Source: Chiloscyllium plagiosum (taxonomy: Eukaryota). Taken from it: DNA of 33,330 nt. This document shows, in pieces, positions 3,506 to 33,330 of the stretch. A program made the position numbers and the translations under genes. The stretch is taken from positions 14,503,659 through 14,536,988 of the forward strand of contig NC_057751.1 of assembly GCF_004010195.1 (NCBI RefSeq), given 5' to 3'. Positions within the stretch are counted from its first letter, which is position 1, and each line of letters begins with the position of its first letter. Below the pieces are notes generated by a model that saw nothing but the letters and a program-made list of their open reading frames with translations, had not been told where the DNA came from and did no database searches.

Positions 3506-3590
3506 TCAGCACTGAGGGGCAGTCGAGGTTCCGAACTGGAGAGACCCCCAGGTGAAGTGCTCGCTGACAACCCAGCCACTCGAGACACAG
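3506..3590 (+). CDS. AFAP1-family gene, exon C (inter-PH linker)
   Basis: tttgctttcccacag|TCA...ACAG|gtgagg; 85 nt, phase 0-1; SALRGSRGSELERPPGEVLADNPATRDT. It supplies the phase-1 G that exon D requires. Confidence 0.82.
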
Positions 3591-6075: not shown

Positions 6076-6660
6076 ATTCCCAAGGATCTGGGTGCCTTGT
6101 TCTTAGGGAGCTGAAAGCCAGTGCAGCAAACGTTATGCTCACCTTTGTTGTGAGGATTTCTGTTCAGGGCAAGGAAGTCTGCCTTCAATTGTACACTGCT
6201 GGGACCGCACCTGGATAATTCTGTGCAGATGTGGTCCCTTGACCTCAGGAGGGAGTGACTTGCTATAGAGGGAGTGCAGCAGAGGTTCATGGGATTGTTC
6301 TCTTAACTAGTCCGACTGTCATCAAAGGAGAGATTGAGGAGACTGGGTCTGTGTTATCCTGAATTTAGAAGGACGAGTGGCAATCTCACAGAACAGCAAT
6401 GTTTGAGAAGATTTGTAGCTCAGGTTGATGCTGAGCTGCAAGCTGGACGTGAGACTCTGATGATGTTACCTCGTCATGGTGACCAAAAGGCTGAAAACAA
6501 ACCTTCCAGCTCAGCAAGCCAACTGACATACGTAATCTCATGGAATCTTACAAAATTCTTCAGAAACAGAAATAATGCTTCCCTGGCTGTGGACTCCAGA
6601 ATCAGGGAACTCAGTCTCAGAGGGAGAAGGAGGCCAATGAGAGGAGGAAGAATTTCTTCA
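6076..6660 (+). mobile_element. Older CR1-type LINE 3' fragment, interrupted at 6394-6533
   Basis: cacctggataattctgtgcag...gagggagtgcagcagaggttca...ttgaggagactgggtctg...gaatttagaagg; its tail probably resumes at about 7980-8125. Confidence 0.65.
6394..6533. mobile_element. Miniature Poseidon-type Penelope pLTR element with degenerate hammerhead
   Basis: ctgatgatgttacc...ggtgaccaaa...ccttccagctcagcaagc matches the end of the 20999-21504 element; inverted gctgagctg/cagctcagc; flanked by aatctcacagaa / aatctcatggaa. Confidence 0.68.
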
Positions 6661-8468: not shown

Positions 8469-8680
8469 GTTACCTGAAGGTGCTCGTGAACAGCCACTGG
8501 CAGACTCTGTGGTGTCACATTGAGGACCGAGTGCTGTTGATGTATAAAGATGTCGGCGGAGCCGGGAGGCTGCACTACTCCGTGGACCTGCAAGGTTGTG
8601 AGGTCAGGATGCAGGCTGACAGCACCCACAAGTACAGGCTGACTGTCTCACAGCAGCACAAGGATCTGGCTGTGCTGCAG
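8469..8680 (+). CDS. AFAP1-family gene, exon D (PH2 domain)
   Basis: ctgcccag|GT...CAG|gtaagg; 212 nt, phase 1-0; GYLKVLVNSHWQTLWCHIEDRVLLMYKD...SVDLQGCEV...LAVLQ matches AFAP PH2 (GYL.VL.N..W...WC...L.GCEV...AVLE). Confidence 0.93.
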
Positions 8681-10923: not shown

Positions 10924-11066
10924 ACTAGCTCGCCAGAGGACAGAGATCGATGGCTCAGCCTCCTGCAGGCAGGGTGTGGCATGAACACAGAACCCGCTCA
11001 CCTGTACGAAGACACTGTCCTGCCGAGTGGAACTGATGTAGCTCCAAGGGATGGAAACCAAGTCAG
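10924..11066 (+). CDS. AFAP1-family gene, exon E (end of PH2, Tyr motif)
   Basis: ttctctcacag|ACT...AG|gtcagc; 143 nt, phase 0-2; TSSPEDRDRWLSLLQAGCGMNTEPAHLYEDT... (cf. ASSSEDMGRWIGILLAETG..TDPEALHYDY in AFAP1). Confidence 0.9.
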
Positions 11067-12900: not shown

Positions 12901-13015
12901 TGGTTTGCTTCAGCGACGAATCACCACTCCCAACACGTACATGGACGACCCATTCGGCCAAGTGTCCGGTCAGAACGCTCTAGAAGACAGGAGCTCGGGA
13001 GCCACTCAACAGACG
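12901..13015 (+). CDS. AFAP1-family gene, exon F
   Basis: ttttcattgttctcag|T...ACG|gtaggt; 115 nt, phase 2-0; (S)GLLQRRITTPNTYMDDPFGQVSGQNALEDRSSGATQQT (cf. RRVISANPY in AFAP1). Confidence 0.87.
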
Positions 13016-13418
13016 GTAGGTCTGAAAACAAGGACGTAAGCACTTCACGAGAAAGAGGTGCTGAGATTGATCTTGCTGTGGAGAAGCAGAGGAGTGGAGG
13101 GAGTGTACTAAGATTTATAATGCGAAAGAAAAGCAAGATCAAATTTCAGGGCAAAATCTGAACTCATTCGTTTTACCAAATGTAGAATTTAGATACTGGT
13201 CTCAGTATATGTGACAGTTGAATTGTCATCGTTTCTTTAGAAGAGGAAACCTTTTGGCCTGACCCAGAGAAGTCACATCAGTTCCCCACCTTTTTAAAAG
13301 GTCCTTTGAAAGGGCCTGAGAAGCCGTTTAATTGCATCAGCTATGGGTCCACGGAGTCTAGATTAGACTGTGGTGCTGGAAAAGCGCAGCAGGTCAGGCA
13401 GCATCCGAGGAGCAGGAA

Positions 13419-13454
13419 AATCGACGTTTCGGGCAAAAGCCCTTCATCAGGAAT
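13419..13454 (-). ncRNA. Minimal type I hammerhead ribozyme motif, core intact
   Basis: Minus strand reads ATTC-CTGATGA-A-GGGC-TTTT-GCCC-GAAAC-GTC-GATT: CUGANGA box, 4-bp stem II, GAAA box, GUC triplet with palindromic ACGU. Confidence 0.72.
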
Positions 13455-13493
13455 GAAGGCAGGGAGCCTCCAGGGTGGAGACTCCCTGCCTCC

Positions 13494-13529
13494 ATTCCTG
13501 ATGAAGGGCTTTTGCCCGAAACATCGATT
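13494..13529 (+). ncRNA. Minimal hammerhead motif, variant (AUC triplet)
   Basis: ATTC-CTGATGA-A-GGGC-TTTT-GCCC-GAAAC-ATC-GATT; the G-to-A change breaks the ACGU palindrome of stem III. Confidence 0.6.
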
Positions 13530-14128
13530 TTCCTGCTCCTCGGATGCTGCTTGACCTGCTGCGCTTTTCCAGCACCACTCTGATCTAAACTCTGATTTCC
13601 AGCATCTGCCCGATGGGTCTACGGATTGCCAGTGCATCTCACATTGCAAGAATTAATTGTTCAGAAAGAACTTTCTTGTACATTTTTTGCTGGAAACACA
13701 CTTGGCGATCATGGACAAGACACTTGCTACACAGCACTTGAACCACCTGAGTTTTTACCACCTTGCAGTACCTCTGTGTCCTCCATCTTGTTCCCGCGCA
13801 TTCCTAACACCTAATCCATCACGTTTAAGGTGGAGCCATTCTGTGGTTGAACAGAAACAGCAATAGCGATAATAGGTTGGTGCAGTTGCGTTACTCACTG
13901 GTACAGCGTTCCAATTTAAGGAACTTGATATAGTTTTCCGAACACGCAACTCTGGACCATTCCTGGTCTGTTGTTCCCAGATTTGAGGTGAGCTCAGTTG
14001 AGATTAAGCGAGGTCTCGTCTCCCTTGACGACTGAGAATGAGCTCACTGCATTGCCGGGCCTGATCCTCAGTAAAGAGCAGCAGATCAGAGATGAGGGCC
14101 ATTCTTTCCATCTGTTTGTTTCCTGCAG

Positions 14129-14246
14129 AGGGTCAACTGGCCAAGCCGTGAAGTGGTGAACAGAGAAGGCGCAACATTTCAAGACAGGGAACATTGCAGC
14201 AGTACAAACAACAATAATCCGGCAAGATATAGCACCCTGCCAAGTG
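14129..14246 (+). CDS. AFAP1-family gene, exon G
   Basis: tctgtttgtttcctgcag|AGG...AGTG|gtaagt; 118 nt, phase 0-1, no stop; RVNWPSREVVNREGATFQDREHCSSTNNNNPARYSTLPS. Supported by strong splice sites and phase fit; homology is weak. Confidence 0.78.
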
Positions 14247-15387: not shown

Positions 15388-16065
15388 TATAGAGCATTTA
15401 GCATGGAAGCAGACCCTTTAGTCTAACTCATCCACACTGACCAGACATCCCATTCTGATCTAGTCCCATTTGTCAGCTTTTGACCCATATCCCTCTAAAC
15501 CCTCTATTTCATTAACCCATCAAGATGCCTTTTAAATGTTGTAATTATGCCAGCTTCCACCACTTCCTGTGGCAGCTCAATCCATACGAGCACCGCTCTC
15601 TTCATGAAAATGTTATTCCTTTTTAAATCTTTCCCCTCTCACTTTGGGGTGATACTTTTGACCCATATCCCTCTAAACCCTCTGTTTCATTAACCCATCA
15701 AGATGCCTTTTAAATGTTGTAATTATGCCAGCTTCCACCACTTCCTGTGGCAGCTCAATCCATACGAGCACCGCTCTCTTCATGAAAATGTTATTCCTTT
15801 TTAAATCTTTCCCCTCTCACTTTGGGGTGATATCTTCTTGTTTTGGACTCCCCCACCCTATGAAAACGACCCTGGCTATTCACCCTAACTCTGCCCCTCA
15901 CGATTTTATAAACCTCTATAAGGTCACCCCCTCAGCCTCTGATGCTCCAGGGAAAACAGCCCCAGCCTATTCAGCCTCTCCCTCTGGCTCAAACCCTCCA
16001 AAGCTGTCAACATTCTCGTAAATCCTTTCCGCACCCTCTTAAGTTTCACAACACTCTTTCCTGGA
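15388..16065 (-). mobile_element. CR1/HER1 3' end with internal 178-bp tandem duplication
   Basis: Homologous to 4430-4950; 15477-15654 is repeated at 15655-15832. Confidence 0.85.
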
Positions 16066-17860: not shown

Positions 17861-17998
17861 TGTTTCGTGAAACCAACTTTTTAAAATCTTGGAGCGACTT
17901 TGAAATCAAAACATGCGGAGCTGAAAAGGAGCCTTTCAGAAATCAAGCGACGCAGACAGACAAGAAGGATTTCAAAGAGGCAATGGATATCCTGTCTG
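17861..17998 (+). CDS. AFAP1-family gene, exon H (start of coiled-coil region)
   Basis: tgtgttgtttccccgatag|TG...TCTG|gtaagc; 138 nt, phase 1-1; only the phase-1 frame is open: VFRETNFLKSWSDFEIKTCGAEKEPFRNQATQTDKKDFKEAMDILS (end resembles ERKDLRAAIEVNAG in AFAP1). Confidence 0.82.
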
Positions 17999-18795: not shown

Positions 18796-20873
18796 CTAAT
18801 CTGATGCCCATCTAACCTACACCGTTCTGTTATTTTCCATATGTATGTCCAATGCCCATTTAAATGCCCTTAACGTCGGTGAGTCTACTAATGTTGCAGG
18901 CAGGCCATTCCACGCCCCTACTACTCTCTGAGTAAAGAAACTACCCCTGTTATCTGTCTTAAAACTGTGTCCCCTCACATTAGCCTTCACCATCTGAGGA
19001 AAAAGGCTCTCACTGACCACTCTATTTCACCCTCTGGTTATCGTACACGTCTCGATTAAGTCACCTCTCAACCTTCTTCTCTCCAATGAAAACAGCCTCG
19101 GTTCCCTCAGCATTCCCTCATAAGACCTTCTTTCCATACCAGGCAACATCCTAGTAAATCTCCTCTGAACCCTTTCCAAAGCTTCCACATCCTTCCTATA
19201 ATGCGGTGTCCAGAACTCCACGCAATACTCCAGGTGCGGCCTTACCAGTGTCTTGTACAGCTGAAGCATGACCTCATGGCTCTGAAACTCAATCCCTCTA
19301 CCAATAAATGCCAACACACCATATGTATTCTTAACAACCCTATCAACCTGGGTGGCAACTTTCAGGGATTTATGCACCTGGACACTGAGATCTCTCTTTT
19401 CATCTACACTGGCAAGAATTTTACCATTAGCCCAGTATTCTGCATTCCTGTTACTTCTTCAGAAGTGAACTACCTCACAGTTTTCCGCATTAAACTCCAT
19501 TTGTGACTTCTCAGCCCAGCTCTGCATCTTATCGATGTCCCTCTGTAACCCACAACATCCTTCAGCACTATCCACAATGCTGCCTACCTTAATGTCAACC
19601 GCAAATTTACTAACCCATTCTGGATGCCCGCATCCAGGTTATGTATAAAAATGACAAACAGCAAGGGCCCCAAAACAGATCCCAGTGGCACACCACTGGT
19701 AAGTGAGCTCCAGGGTGAACATTTCCCATCAACCACCACCCTCTGTCTTCTTTCAGCTCGCCAATTTCCGATGCAAACCACTAAATCAGCTTCAATCCCG
19801 AAACTCCGTATTTTGTGCAAATGCCTACCATATTGAATCTTATCAAATGCCTTACTGAAGTCCATATACACCACATCAACCACCTTACCTTCATCCACCT
19901 GTTTTGTCACCTTCTCGAAGAACTCACGAAGCTCAGTTAGGCACGACCTACCCTTCGCAAAACTGTGTTGACCATCCATAATCAAATTATTCCTTTCCAG
20001 ATGATTATAAATTCTATCTCTTATATCCTTTTCCAATATCTTACCCACAACCAAAGTAAAAGTCACTGGCGTATAATTAGCAGGGTTGTCCCGACTCCCT
20101 TCCTTAAACAAGGGAACAATATTTGCTATCCTTCAGTCTTCTGGCACTATTCCTGTCAATAATGATGACATAAAGATCAAAGCCAAAGGCTCTGCAATCT
20201 AGATCCCAGTGGCACACCACTGGTAAGTGAGCTCCAGGGTGAACATTTCCCATCAACCACCACCCTCTGTCTTCTTTCAGCTCGCCAATTTCCGATGCAA
20301 ACCACTAAATCAGCTTCAATCCCGAAACTCTGTATTTTGTGCAAATGCCTTCCATATTGAACCTTATCAAATGCCTTACTGAAGTCCATATACACCACAT
20401 CAACCACCTTACCTTCATCCACCTGTTTTGTCACCTTCTCGAAGAACGCACGAAGCTCAGTTAGGCACGACCTACCCTTCGCAAAACTGTGTTGACCATC
20501 CCTAATCAAATTATTCCTTTCCAGATGATTATAAATTCTATCTCTTATATCCTTTTCCAACATCTTACCCACAACCAAAGTAAAAGTCACTGGCCTATAA
20601 ATAGCAGGGTTGTCCCGACTCCCTTCCTTAAACAAGGGAACAATATTTGCTATCCTTCAGTCTGCTGGCACTATTCCCGTAGACAATGATGACATAAAGA
20701 TCAAAGCCAAAGGCTCTGCAATCTCCTCCCTGGCTTCCCAGAGAATCCAAGGATAAATTCCATCTGGCCCAGGGGTCTTATTTATTTTCAGATCTTCTAA
20801 AATTGCTAAAACCTCCTCTTTGTCAACAGCAATCCCATCTAATCTAGTAGCCTGTATCTCCATATTCTCCATA
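18796..20873 (-). mobile_element. CR1-type LINE, RT region, with 524-bp tandem duplication
   Basis: Minus-strand peptides [60 protein letters not shown]. Confidence 0.92.
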
Positions 20874-20998: not shown

Positions 20999-21504
20999 AG
21001 CAAGAATATACAGACAATGAGCAAAACTAACGTCATTTAGAAAATACCGTGCAAGGACTGTAAAAAACACTACATTGGGCAAACAGGTAGAAAACTAGCC
21101 AACAACTTACATAAACAGCAACCAGCCACAAAAAGACATGACCCTCTCTCACTAGTATCCTCACATACGGATGAGGAAGGACACCACTTCGACTGGGACA
21201 ACACATCCGTCCTACGACAAGCCCAACAAAGACACGCACAGGAATTCCTAGAAGCTTGGCATTCCAACTGGAACTCTATCACCAAACACATCGAGTTAGA
21301 CCCCCATCTACCACCCCCTGAGAAAAGCAACAGAAAGTGACTTCACAACAGGAAATGACATCACCAACCCAAATAAACCCAAACATATAAATAGTAAGCA
21401 GGAATTTTCAGCATTGCTTCACAGAGGCCCACTGAAGATGTTACCTAGTGAGGTAACGAAACGCCTGGAAATGAACCTCCAAGCTCAGCGAGCAAACCTA
21501 CAGC
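20999..21504 (+). mobile_element. 5'-truncated Penelope-like (Poseidon-type) element: GIY-YIG pseudogene plus pLTR
   Basis: SKTNVI*KIPCKDCKKHYIGQTGRKLA...HFDWDNT...EFLEAWHS; hammerhead motif at 21429-21468; flanked by caagaatggaa (20988-20998, 21505-21515). Confidence 0.85.
21429..21468 (+). ncRNA. Hammerhead motif in Poseidon pLTR, cleavage triplet mutated
   Basis: CCA-CTGAAGA-T-GTTACCT-AGTG-AGGTAAC-GAAAC-GCC-TGG: stem I CCA/TGG, 7-bp stem II, GCC in place of GUC. Confidence 0.65.
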
Positions 21505-22690: not shown

Positions 22691-22854
22691 NNNNNNNNNN
22701 NNNNNNNNNNNNNNNNNNNNNNNNNNNNNNNNNNNNNNNNNNNNNNNNNNNNNNNNNNNNNNNNNNNNNNNNNNNNNNNNNNNNNNNNNNNNNNNNNNNN
22801 NNNNNNNNNNNNNNNNNNNNNNNNNNNNNNNNNNNNNNNNNNNNNNNNNNNNNN
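22691..22854. other. Assembly gap (164 N)
   Basis: Run of n. Confidence 1.
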
Positions 22855-23343: not shown

Positions 23344-23531
23344 AGAAAAAGGCGCTGCCAAGGTTGGAAGAGAAGATCCGTCGTCTCGAGCAGGCTATGT
23401 ACAGAGCGAAAGAGAGGGTGAAGTCGGGATCTGAACTTAACCTGCTGTCCCTGAGCAAGACGTTGAAACGGGCATCCTGTGGCCAGTCTCTGGCTCTGTT
23501 TTCCTCAAACTCAGAAGCAGCGAGTCCTGAG
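23344..23531 (+). CDS. AFAP1-family gene, exon I (coiled coil / actin-binding region)
   Basis: tgtttgttctcggctgcag|AG...GAG|gtctgt; 188 nt, phase 1-0; EKKALPRLEEKIRRLEQAMYRAKERVKSGSELNLLSLSKTLKRASCGQSLALFSSNSEAASPE (cf. LEEKLKQLEE...SLKKALAGG in AFAP1). Confidence 0.88.
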
Positions 23532-23889: not shown

Positions 23890-24154
23890 CTGGGACAGGC
23901 AGATGACGAGGGGAAGTTGGGCCAGCTATGAGTTTCGAAGGGTAAGAGGCAATGAAAGGGTCTGAACAGAGTAGATGTGGAGAGGATGTTTCCTCTTACA
24001 GGGAAACCAGATCACGGTTTAAAAATCACTTATCACAAAGAGGAAGTGAATTTCGTTTCTGTCAGAGGGTTGTGAATCTTTGGAATTCCTGTCCTGAAAA
24101 GGCATGGAAGGACAGACCTTGACCATCTTTAAGGGAGAGATCGATGGATTCTTA
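23890..24154 (+). mobile_element. CR1 3' fragment, continuing at 25992-26077 and 26326-26397
   Basis: agtagatgtggagaggatgtttcctctt...cagagggttgtgaatctttggaattc...tttaagggagagatcgatggattctt. Confidence 0.72.
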
Positions 24155-25991
24155 GAGAAAGTGCGGACCGCAGATGCTGGAGATCAGAGTCGAGAGTGTG
24201 GTGCTGGAAAAGCACAGCAGGTCAGGCAGCATCCGAGGAGCAGGAGATTCGACATTTTGGGCATAAGCCCTTCATCAGGAATGAGGCTTGTGGGCCGGTT
24301 GGCGGGGGCGATGCTGAGAGATAATTGGAAGGGGGGGTGGGGCTGAGGGGAAGTCAGCCGCAAATGCAATCAGTAGGTGAAGGCAGGGGAGAAGGTGTCT
24401 CAGCCTGCTCCTGTCCCACTGAATTCAGCTCTGCATACCTTGACACCGTCCTGTCCCCCTTGGTCCAGGTGCTCCCCACCTACATTCTGGACACCACCCA
24501 CTCCGTCCACCTCCTCCAAAACTTTTGTTTCCCCGACCCCCTATGCCTGATCTTCACCATGGACATCCAGTCCCTGTACACATCTATCCGCCAGGACCAA
24601 GGCCTCCAAGCCCTCCATTTCTTCCTTTCCCGCCTTGACACCCACATCCGTCCTGGCTGAACTTGTCCTCACCCTCAACAACTTCTCCTTCCAATCCTCC
24701 CACTTCCTCCAAACCAAAGGGATAGCCATGGGACCCGCATGGGCCCCAGCTCTACCTGCCTCATCGTTGGGTACGTGGAACAGTCCATCTTCCGCAGCTA
24801 CACCAGCACCATTCCCCACCTTTTCCTCCGCCATATCAATGACGGTATCAGCACCACCTCGTGTTCCCACGAGGAGGTTGAACAGTTCAGTAAATTCACA
24901 ACACCTTTCACCCCAACTTCAAGTTCACCCGGACCATCGTGGACGCCTCCCTCCCCTTCCTGAAGCTCTCCACCTCCATCTCCGGCAACCGACTAACCAC
25001 GGACACCCACTACAAACCCACCAACTCCCACAGCTACCTGGACTTCAGCTCCTCCCACCCTACCTCCTGTGAAAATGCCATCCCTAATTCCGAAGTGCTC
25101 CGCCTCTGTTGCATCTGTTCCCAGGATGACCAATTCCACCACAGAAAATCCTATCCGCAAATTCCCCTCCCACCTGGTCGACGGTGCCCTCCAGTGCATC
25201 TCCACCATTTCCTACACCTCTACCCTTCAACCCCCACCCCTCCCCCCGCAACAAGAAAAGAACCCGCCCGCCCACCCCAACTCCTGGCACCTTCCCTTGC
25301 CACCGAGCCCACACCTTCCCCCTCTCTCCGTCCAAGGCCCCAAAGGATCCTTCCACATCCCACCGAAATTCACCTGTAATTCCACACATGTCACCTACTG
25401 CATCCGTTGCACCCAGTGTGGTCTCTTCTACAGTGGGGAGACAGGACGCCTTCTTGCGGATCGTTTCAGAGAACATCTCTGGGACACCCACACCCACCAA
25501 ACCCACCGTCCCGTGGCTGAACACTTCAACTCCCCCTCCCACGCTGTCAAGGACATGCAGGTCCTGGGCCTCCTCCATCACCAAACCCGAACCACCTGAC
25601 GCCTGGAGAAGGAACGCCTCATATCCCACTTTGGGACCCTGCAACCCCACGGGATTAATACAGATTTCACCAGTTTCCTCATTTCCCTTCCCTCCACCTG
25701 GTCCCAGTCCCAAGCCTCCAACTCGGCACCACCCTTTTGACCTGTCCATCGTCTTTCCCATCTGTCCACTCCACCCTCCTCTCCGACCGAGCACCTTCTC
25801 CCCCACCTTCATCTACCTAATGCATTCTCAGCTAACTTCCCCCAGCCCTACCCCCCTCCCATTTACCCCTCAGCGCCCCCTCGGCCCACAAGCCTCATTC
25901 CTGATGAAGGGCTTATGCCCCATACGTCGATTCTCCTGCTCCTCGGATGCTGTCTGACCTGCTGTGCTTTTCTAGCACCCACACTCTCCAC
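24155..25991 (+). mobile_element. Penelope-like retroelement (Neptune-type), decayed RT + GIY-YIG, inverted 5' pLTR
   Basis: Peptides FTMDIQSLYTSI, LTLNNFSF...QTKGIAMG, LRHIND (decayed YIDD), KPTNSHSYLDFSSSHP, FTCNSTHVTYCIRCTQCGLFYSGETGR..DRFREH, VAEHFN; inverted termini about 24190-24397 / 25791-25990. Confidence 0.9.
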
Positions 25992-26406: not shown

Positions 26407-26832
26407 GGGATGGCACGGTGGCTCAGTGGTTAGCACTGCTGCCTCACGGAGCCAGGGACCCAGGTTCTATTCCAGCCTCGGGTGACTGACTGTGTGGAGT
26501 TTGCACGTTCTCCCCGTGTCTGCGTGGGTTCCCTCCGGGTGCTCCGGTTTCCTCCCACAGTCCAAAGATGTGCAGGTCAGGGTGGATTGGCCATGGGGAA
26601 ATTACCCATAGTGTCCAGGGATGTGCAGGTTAGGGTGGATTGGCCATGCTAAATTACCCCATAGTGCTCAGGGATGCGCAGGTTAGAGTGGATTTGCCAT
26701 GCTAAATTACCCATAGTGTTAGATGCATTAGTCAGAGGGAAATGGGATTGGGTGGGTTACTCTTCGGAGGGGAGGGGTGGACTTGTTGGGCTGAAGGGCC
26801 TGTTTCCACACTGTGGGGAATCTAATCTAATC
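26407..26832 (+). mobile_element. Full-length HE1 V-SINE with three 53-bp internal repeats
   Basis: Intact A/B boxes, units starting at 26567, 26620 and 26673, (aatct)n tail. Confidence 0.92.
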
Positions 26833-27684
26833 ACAACACCTCTCACAGCATTTCCACAATAGAGCACTCAGAGTATCAGCCTGAATTAAGGACTCAGATC
26901 CTCAAGTGGGACTTGAACTCACTATCTGGGACCCATATTTTCATGGCACCTGCAGGGTTGGGGGCTGGGATTGTGGAAAGCACAGTTAGACAGTCAGGTC
27001 AGTCTGAGATGGACTCACAGCTGTAAACGACCTGAGGCCTCGAGTTGTCAAACACGACGGCCTGGACAGCGGCCCGTACAGACAGCAGGGTGGGACGGTT
27101 GGAAGTCTGAAGCATTTCTCCACTCGTCTCAGGAATGTGTGACCTTACTTTGCCTTGCGCTGTTAGTTCAGTCAAGACACTAACTTCACACGTACACAAT
27201 GCTCCGTCATTTTTAAACAGAAGCAGATATCTATTGGAGTTTGAAGCAGTGCTGTTTGACATATCTCACAGCATTTTACTCATCCCTGACCTGCTCCTCG
27301 GACTAAAAATCTATCAAATCACCAATCTCAATTTTAACATCGCAAATGTTTCAATCTTTTCCCATCTGTTCAGATGCGGACTCGAATCACTCACTTGGAT
27401 CTCTGAGTTCAGATCCAAACTCCACCTGTTTAAACAGGAGTTGGAGTCTGAAAGAGCAAGTTTTTTGAGCAATTAAACAGGCAGCTTTTCACCAGCAACA
27501 AATGTAGCTTTTGCATTTTCTTCTTGATATTCATTTATAACTGGCCTTTTGATTTGACCCGGGCCAGACTCAATCAGATTTGATGGAATGCCATCATTTG
27601 GGCTCTGGTCAGTCTTGCAGAGCTGCTGCCAATCTGCTGTGACTTGATATCAATGTCACTGCTCATTTCTCATTCAATTGACAG

Positions 27685-27795
27685 GGTCCGATAGTCAGCC
27701 CAATCTTAAGACGCACAGCCTCAGCCAAAAGCACTCTGAGAAGGACACCGTCCATCACGGTGGTTGAAAAGGGCCGAGTCCTGCAGAAAACAAAG
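27685..27795 (+). CDS. AFAP1-family gene, penultimate coding exon J
   Basis: tttctcattcaattgacag|GGT...AAG|gtatgt; 111 nt, phase 0-0; GPIVSPILRRTASAKSTLRRTPSITVVEKGRVLQKTK has the AFAP-family G.VL.K.K ending. Confidence 0.9.
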
Positions 27796-32654: not shown

Positions 32655-33330
32655 CACTTTGGATACTGCTGGAGGGGGATGACCTACCAGAGGAAAGCCA
32701 TAGTAGTCAGTTCCCTGGCACTGAACCTGACACTGTGGCAAAGAAGGGAAGGGGGCAGAATAGAAAAGTACTCCTGGTAGGGGACTCGATAGTTAGGGGA
32801 AATTACAGGAGATTTTGTGGTCAGGATCGGGATTCCCGGAAGGTATGTTGCCTCCCTGTGCCAGGGTTCGGGACATCTCCGATCGGGTGTATAAGGTTTT
32901 AAAAGGGGAGGGCGAACAGCCAGAAATCGTGTTACATATTGGCACTAATGATATAGCCAGAAAAACGATTGAGGATATAAAAAATGATTTCAGGGAGTTA
33001 GGATGGAAGCTGCAAAGCAGGATGAACAATTAGTGTTCTCTAGTTTACTACCGGTGCCACGAGATAGCAAGGCGAGGAACAGGGAGCGGGCGCAGCTTAA
33101 CACGTGACTGCGCAGCTGGTGTAGGAGGGAGGGCTTCAGATATGTAGATAATTTGGGATGCCTTCTGGGGAAGGTGGGTACCGGTGCCACGAGATAGCAA
33201 GGCGAGGAACAGGGAGCGGGCGCAGCTTAACACGTGACTGCGCAGCTGGTGTAGGAGGGAGGGCTTCAGATATGTAGATAATTTGGGATGCCTTCTGGGG
33301 AAGGTGGGACTTGTACAAGAAGGACGGGTT
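32655..33330 (+). mobile_element. CR1 LINE ORF1 pseudogene (SGNH/GDSL esterase domain), runs off the window end
   Basis: VLLVGDSIVRG (32768-32800), ARVRDISDRV, VLHIGTND, LLPVPR, WDAFWGRWDLYKKDG; stops and frameshifts; 130-bp tandem duplication. Confidence 0.88.

Follow-up and report, generated by a model that had tools for sequence, protein, structure and literature searches.

An intronic fold-back of two Penelope-like pLTR ends in Chiloscyllium plagiosum: probably a single, severely truncated insertion

Background

Complex insertions have been published for Penelope-like elements (PLEs). As described in the cited sections of two reports, they combine inverted pLTRs, palindromes at the junctions, a target-site duplication (TSD) of 8-10 bp and an optional tail (PMC3846280; PMC8557442); this tail may be found on either of the insertion's ends, and its presence at one end only is treated there as a signature of integration (PMC8557442; PMC3846280). 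Within rotifer Penelopes, palindromes occur consistently at head-to-head junctions, which the relevant section of the source reads as self-priming (PMC3846280), and a curation guide likewise names inverted pLTRs and short 3' extensions as peculiarities of these elements (PMC8969392). PLE insertions can also be very short: in the part of the Chlamydomonas study cited here, de novo insertions are 5'-truncated, with a median length of 128 bp (PMC9977147). On the biochemical side, an anole PLE protein, once purified, was active on both target strands, which it cleaved and extended; its reverse transcription has two internal start sites, between which the tail lies (PMC11167929).

Minimal hammerhead motifs (min-HHRs) are a further feature of metazoan PLEs. 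According to the section of the survey that treats them, such motifs do not cleave as monomers and have low activity as dimers, and in 2014 Schistosoma was already seen to have dual min-HHRs separated by 100-700 bp, with the two motifs on opposite strands (PMC4209133).

Here a hairpin-forming insertion is analysed within a 33,330-nt stretch of Chiloscyllium plagiosum DNA (NC_057751.1, positions 14,503,659 to 14,536,988; termed here the window). A first-pass annotation, made from the letters alone, had described it as two inverted Penelope pLTRs and had offered two origins: a MITE-like ribozyme-bearing retroelement mobilised in trans, or an extreme 5' truncation with inversion. With the complex insertions of EN+ PLEs (Penelope/Poseidon), as these are presented in the cited sections, the fold-back shares head-to-head pLTRs, a junction palindrome with overlap, a one-sided tail, a short TSD and a pLTR hammerhead (PMC3846280; PMC8557442). 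Unlike them it has no ORF remnant between its arms; moreover, its tail measures 19 nt as against the 30-40 bp given there for PLEs, and its TSD 13 bp as against 8-10 bp in the rotifer examples (PMC3846280; PMC8557442). Judged on sequence, then, it has the structure expected of a truncated EN+ PLE insertion, a layout already known in print.

The fold-back also resembles two other systems in outline, and departs from both. MITEs and fold-back elements are likewise short inverted-repeat inserts with a TSD, and L1 twin priming likewise yields an inversion joined by microhomology. In contrast to MITEs, however, the ends of this element are not symmetric TIRs of the transposase type, and no family of fixed length was seen; in contrast to L1 twin priming, it is the 3' end, and not some upstream segment, that is duplicated by the inverted part.

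Results and discussion

Geometry of the hairpin and its central junction

The features on which the analysis rests are collected in Table 1. Without gaps, the inverted repeat comprises 103 nt at 96% identity (13370-13472 and 13476-13578); with one gap, the arms lengthen to 117 nt (13356-13472) and 115 nt (13476-13590) on either side of a 3-nt loop (13473-13475), in close agreement with the arms of about 118 bp and the 3-nt loop reported at first pass. The gapped alignment, of 117 columns, consists of 109 matches, 6 transitions and one 2-nt indel, the latter being an insertion in the left arm (13368-13369) that is absent from 27 contigs of run X1. Folded as RNA, the hairpin reaches -235.3 kcal/mol (z -26), a stability equalled by none of 200 shuffles. 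A Pfam search with the two frames over the element found no match. The open frame spanning the hairpin was also used in a protein search for gene models that share the junction; it returned zero candidates, a result that is uninformative.

Table 1. Features of the fold-back, its host gene and a sister element (window coordinates)
Feature	Position	Strand	Remark
Left copy of 13-bp TSD	13343..13355	.	
Left arm: inverted, tail-less Penelope 3' end/pLTR copy	13356..13481	-	reads on through loop
Minimal type-I hammerhead, left copy, intact in sequence	13423..13450	-	antisense to host transcript
Inversion junction on native palindrome (5-bp stem, 3-nt loop)	13468..13481	.	
Right arm: direct Penelope 3' end/pLTR copy	13476..13590	+	
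Minimal hammerhead, right copy, helix-III palindrome broken	13498..13525	+	transcribed strand
One-sided tail: 19 nt of family sequence without left-arm counterpart	13591..13609	+	
Three extra bases between tail and TSD	13610..13612	.	sequence
Right copy of TSD	13613..13625	.	
Upstream host exon	12901..13015	+	
Downstream host exon	14129..14246	+	
Host exons, 1-5 of list	~1340-1519, 3506-3590, 8469-8680, 10925-11063, 12901-13015	+	
Host exons, rest of list	~14129-14246, 17864-17998, 23345-23531, 27684-27795, 30665 on	+	
Decayed Penelope: inverted 5' arm with tail, RT and GIY-YIG remnants, direct tail-less 3' pLTR	24150..25990	+	junction near 24400

At the center the arms overlap by 5 nt (13476-13480): among paralogous contigs, those that follow the left arm reach 13479-13481, and those on the right arm start from 13477-13478. 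Because left-arm paralogues run through the loop, and because the loose-end consensus behind 13456 contains it (reading through GGGTGGAGA in run X6, with a near match in X1 and X13, at an agreement of about 0.4), the loop and the next 6 nt are native family sequence as far as 13481, with no linker. The arm difference at 13467/13481 may accordingly be a switch point instead of a mutation. The central junction is uncrossed in the 23 listed of 265,570 pieces, so that the junction itself rests on the assembly; the silence of these 23 pieces is weak evidence because the locus's own junction, too, is absent among them.

Flanking repeat, tail and outer ends

The two flanking copies of the 13-bp direct repeat are identical at 12 positions, which bears out the repeat with one mismatch that had been noted earlier; when 30-nt pieces of the window were paired at random, 9 of about 20,000 pairs reached 13 bp with one mismatch. 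At position 13350 organism B, a related species, has the T found in the right copy (13348 differs in B), which suggests that the single mismatch is a later substitution and that the copies began identical.

The element is asymmetric, a property that the first-pass annotation overlooked: the tail and the three bases that follow it are found on the right alone. The tail sequence recurs in copies elsewhere in the window (24170-24190 and 2263-2281), and in the loose ends behind 13609 most paralogues extend further. Its last 8 nt (13602-13609) agree at 7 of 8 positions with the target immediately to the left of the TSD (13334-13341); an equally good match to the tail end occurs in 80 of 32,874 12-nt window slots (0.24%). 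This match, which was seen post hoc and is a hint only, may explain why the tail ends early; it could reflect homology-aided priming or, possibly, a longer degenerate TSD.

Organism B also carries the insertion, and no empty site was found. Its contigs cross both ends of the element, 13193-13396 on the left and 13580-13885 on the right--the right junction being crossed by organism A contigs as well--so that the insertion predates the A-B split. These observations bear on whether the two arms were inserted together at all. An assembly fold-back artefact, two separate insertions or a later rearrangement could each have brought them together, given that the central junction is unspanned in the listed records and that pLTR copies are extremely abundant. 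A mirrored read, however, would not show 6 differing sites and an indel; moreover, the arms lie together within a single TSD, the second species has both outer junctions as well, and the arms share one subfamily, from which the window's three other copies differ. An origin of any of these kinds is, on balance, very improbable.

Host gene and age

Host exon 8471-8680 matches 2COF/KIAA1914 (E 5.6e-8) and the Pfam PH family (E 3.9e-5, just under the curated cut-off), and a PDB search with exon 1340-1519 found no match. The host thus appears to be an AFAP1-family PH-domain adaptor gene, possibly AFAP1L1, with the fold-back in one of its introns. In one contig of X6, which looks like an RNA run, the upstream exon is spliced directly to the downstream exon (12901-13015 to 14129-14246); the upstream exon ends 340 nt before the left arm, the distance given in the earlier description. 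In organism B the same intron has a 10-bp deletion at 13989 and a 14-bp insertion at 14034.

Across four organism B pieces compared with the window, flanking sequence differs at 55 of 1,194 positions (4.6%), while the arms differ from each other at 6 of 115 (5.2%, 95% interval 1.9-11%; Fisher p 0.82 versus flanks). Arms that started out identical when inserted and drifted neutrally from then on would give such values, as would a young master hairpin.

Rfam models of three microRNAs match the hairpin, namely mir-4529, mir-680 and mir-1976, at scores (against gathering thresholds) of 56 (88), 30 (104) and 29.9 (71) bits; since all three fall under threshold, a microRNA precursor was rejected. 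More broadly, the host might have kept the hairpin as a functional intronic duplex, that is, as a small-RNA precursor, an editing substrate or a splicing modulator. Its fold on the transcribed strand is very stable, the insertion is present in two species, intron sequence up to the left arm occurs at low depth in X6, and the Rfam matches, weak as they are, are to miRNA hairpin models. Yet the arms have diverged at the neutral rate of the flanks and none of their 6 changes forms a compensatory pair, a best Rfam score of 56 against 88 bits is what any perfect hairpin would be expected to give, and the one listed spliced contig shows a normal join between the flanking exons; host retention is therefore scarcely to be expected, and is the least probable of the readings considered here.

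Hammerhead motifs

Both strands have hammerhead core boxes, as had been claimed: those of the + strand are at 13498-13522 and those of the - strand at 13450-13426. Measured against the published description (PMC4209133, section cited above), the left copy has the core box, a bulged A, a 4-bp stem II, a palindromic ACGU and a GUC triplet; the right copy has ACAU for ACGU in helix III. Compared with metazoan PLE minimal hammerheads as that section presents them, the core boxes, the bulged base before stem II, G10.1-C11.1 and, for the left copy, the palindromic minimal helix III are shared, while a 4-bp stem II, a weak stem I and the burial of both motifs in duplex set the present pair apart (PMC4209133). 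Rfam gave no hammerhead match at E values up to 1. A search for the exact hammerhead pattern gave 0 matching stretches among viral contigs and 0 among metagenome contigs, collections that are unlikely to contain it.

Within the intron transcript, the computed pairing probability of the right-copy stem II rounds to 0, and forcing a hammerhead core against the hairpin costs a computed 41.3 kcal/mol on either strand. Because the motifs are on opposite strands, because the helix-III palindrome of the transcribed copy is broken, and because of this cost of 41 kcal/mol, the ribozymes are unlikely to fold. The term 'ribozyme-bearing' in the first-pass annotation is thus apt for the sequence but not for the folding: in these models both motifs are probably locked in the hairpin and inactive, and would be passengers.

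Non-LTR retrozymes are, like this element, short, non-coding and PLE-derived and carry a type-I hammerhead; they are, however, tandems of two or more head-to-tail units with ribozymes on one strand (as described in the cited part of bioRxiv 10.64898/2026.07.22.740005), whereas the fold-back has its two units head to head and a single motif on each strand. It is this layout that would prevent release of a circular monomer. A retrozyme was rejected for this locus, where there is no tandem array and the arrangement is inverted.

Penelope identity and sister copies

The arm sequence recurs three more times in the window: once as a solo copy (near 2181-2300) and twice as the ends of a decayed element of about 1.8 kb at 24150-25990. 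The arms of this element (24189-24401 and 25789-25991) match in 179 of 214 columns and are flanked by a 14-15-bp repeat. Its pLTRs at 24170-24287 and 25892-25979 are 87-89% identical to the fold-back arms (106 of 122 and 79 of 89 positions for the right arm), and the two loci represent sister subfamilies. Between its arms lies a GIY-YIG remnant with a CxxC motif, for which the Pfam match (E 0.0014) is under cut-off and which falls in Atlas clusters at 0.94-0.96, those that are named having GIY-YIG in 18-33% of members; RT motifs, frameshifted, are recognised there by eye only, and 0 of 3 RT pieces matched Pfam. The linkage of the pLTR to a PLE-type RT and a GIY-YIG domain is accordingly found through this sister copy and not in the fold-back itself; matching pLTRs that frame RT and GIY-YIG remnants nonetheless support the Penelope pLTR origin proposed at first pass. 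The sister element has the same inverted layout as the fold-back, but with another junction and a long body, and the side of the tail differs: it is on the inverted arm there and on the right (direct) arm here.

Several other repeats were observed in the window, whose repeat landscape resembles that of a shark. The solo copy, a decayed pLTR end at about 2170-2305, lies within a SINE-like repeat, has a 7-bp direct repeat on both sides and contains a damaged hammerhead. Two further hammerhead-like core patterns (6457-6497 and 21432-21462, + strand) are probably ends of another Penelope family; the latter closes a stretch at about 21030-21320 that looks, by eye, like GIY-YIG. Old repeats contain two-copy tandem duplications at 15477-15832, 19677-20724 and 33049-33308 (178, 524 and 130 bp; 99, 97.5 and 100%), which are likely assembly overlaps or gap-filling artefacts. 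At 26560-26719 three tandem 53-bp units lie within a SINE-like repeat, and at 22691-22854 an assembly gap of 164 N separates GT/GA microsatellite tracts.

Copy abundance: family or single event

Records matching the window were taken from 4 of 24 listed runs (98,863, 111,231, 2,712 and 71,716 records), and summed contig depth is not taken as copy number. In two genomic-looking runs depth is 1e6-3e7 on the arms versus about 13-50 on the flanks, and the Penelope-like element whose ends form the arms is evidently very abundant. A raw RNA run has depth in 6 of 30 bins, all of them on the repeat, where paralogues swamp the arms.

The runs contain 975 joints. The 15 that are listed lead from 11 left positions (13417-13454) to 13494-13542, and the letters between joint sides differ from joint to joint in the 12 listed of 605 rows. 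Head-to-head pLTR pairs thus appear to be common and their junctions varied, as far as the 15 listed of 975 joints represent them. Many of the listed joints end at 13494; because it is there that other subfamilies begin to match, these joints describe sister subfamilies. Two joints, 13422>13542 and 13438>13524, have organism A contig depths of 2,916/1,004 and 240/4,282, respectively, and neither occurs in organism B; the second is found also in 11 RNA reads from 10 starts. Both come from other loci, have short sides (23-29 letters) and may be amplified or highly expressed fold-backs.

Copies with the present junction can be bounded from 150-nt RNA reads. Since a single arm is shorter than such a read, copies with this junction could yield reads that are placed entirely on the stretch, yet 2,708 of 2,712 reads fit it partly and at most 4 of 2,712 wholly. 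As a rough estimate, which assumes that about one-third of the reads from such copies would be wholly placed, these copies account for near or under 1% of pLTR reads. Libraries of cDNA under-sample hairpins, which weakens this bound.

These data bear most directly on the first of the two origins offered earlier: a MITE-like, non-autonomous fold-back family, in which a hairpin master of about 255 bp would be copied as a unit, in trans, by Penelope proteins. There is precedent for its ingredients, inasmuch as the cited passages report that PLE proteins can act in trans to mobilise cargo flanked by pLTRs (PMC3846280) and that non-autonomous PLE derivatives exist (bioRxiv 10.64898/2026.07.22.740005; PMC8557442; PMC9977147). 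The two deep joints in organism A suggest, moreover, that some fold-backs may be amplified, and the family is so large that even less than 1% of its copies could be hundreds. On the other hand, the reads lying wholly on the stretch are at most 4 of 2,712, the listed paralogous pieces stop or start at the junction, and the listed junctions (15 of 975) are spread over many positions; furthermore, the asymmetric tail marks a fresh PLE integration. Nor would a junction shared between copies be decisive, because it lies on a native palindrome, at which independent events could recur without any family. The trans-mobilised family is thus not borne out for this locus, and we regard it as decidedly unlikely.

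A wider version of the idea is only somewhat less doubtful: some fold-backs in the genome (this one, or those with joints 13422>13542 and 13438>13524) may constitute palindromic, non-autonomous, retrotransposon-derived 'retro-MITE' families copied as units by Penelope reverse transcriptase and endonuclease, and would then supply introns with long double-stranded RNA. A literature search that covered main texts, few of them from subscription journals, found no shark Penelope fold-back and no palindromic non-autonomous PLE family.

Proposed origin

Most probably the fold-back is a single, old, severely 5'-truncated and dead-on-arrival insertion of an EN+ Penelope-like element, of which only the pLTR end and its inverted partner are left. 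The second origin offered by the first-pass annotation--extreme 5' truncation with inversion--is thereby favored by the pLTR ends standing head to head, by the TSD, by the one-sided tail and by the position of the junction on a native palindrome with a 5-nt overlap.

By analogy with the anole PLE protein, the insertion is proposed to have arisen as follows. The GIY-YIG nuclease of the element would nick the two target strands 13 nt apart, and each nick would prime cDNA synthesis on element RNA. The start site of the right cDNA would include the tail, while that of the left cDNA would lie 19 nt further in. Both cDNAs would stall after about 125 nt at the palindrome, leaving 3' ends that are complementary over 5 nt; these stalled cDNAs would then anneal and the gaps be filled in. 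From then on the insertion would decay neutrally; in the host pre-mRNA, the long duplex would bury the sole sense-strand hammerhead, and the intron would be spliced out.

Plain snap-back of one tail-bearing cDNA was considered and rejected as a full account, because that cDNA would then carry the opposite loop: the native loop belongs to the strand that begins in the tail-less arm, and this strand cannot template the tail without later trimming. The published self-priming, followed by later trimming of one arm, fits as well as the twin-cDNA step proposed here.

Conclusions

As a single locus, this fold-back matters little, being one among very many truncated Penelope ends. As a minimal case it is clean, however, in that the asymmetry of the tail, the overlap at the junction, the polarity of the loop and the TSD can all be read from it. 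The loop polarity excludes plain self-copying of a tail-bearing cDNA and so bears on the pathway of Penelope integration. Across the many fold-back Penelope ends of this genome, the large number of positions of junctions, tail ends and TSDs would also separate twin-cDNA from self-priming models by genome sequence alone. Should a family with a fixed junction prove true, MITEs would have in it a counterpart made by a retrotransposon, and it would supply introns with double-stranded RNA.
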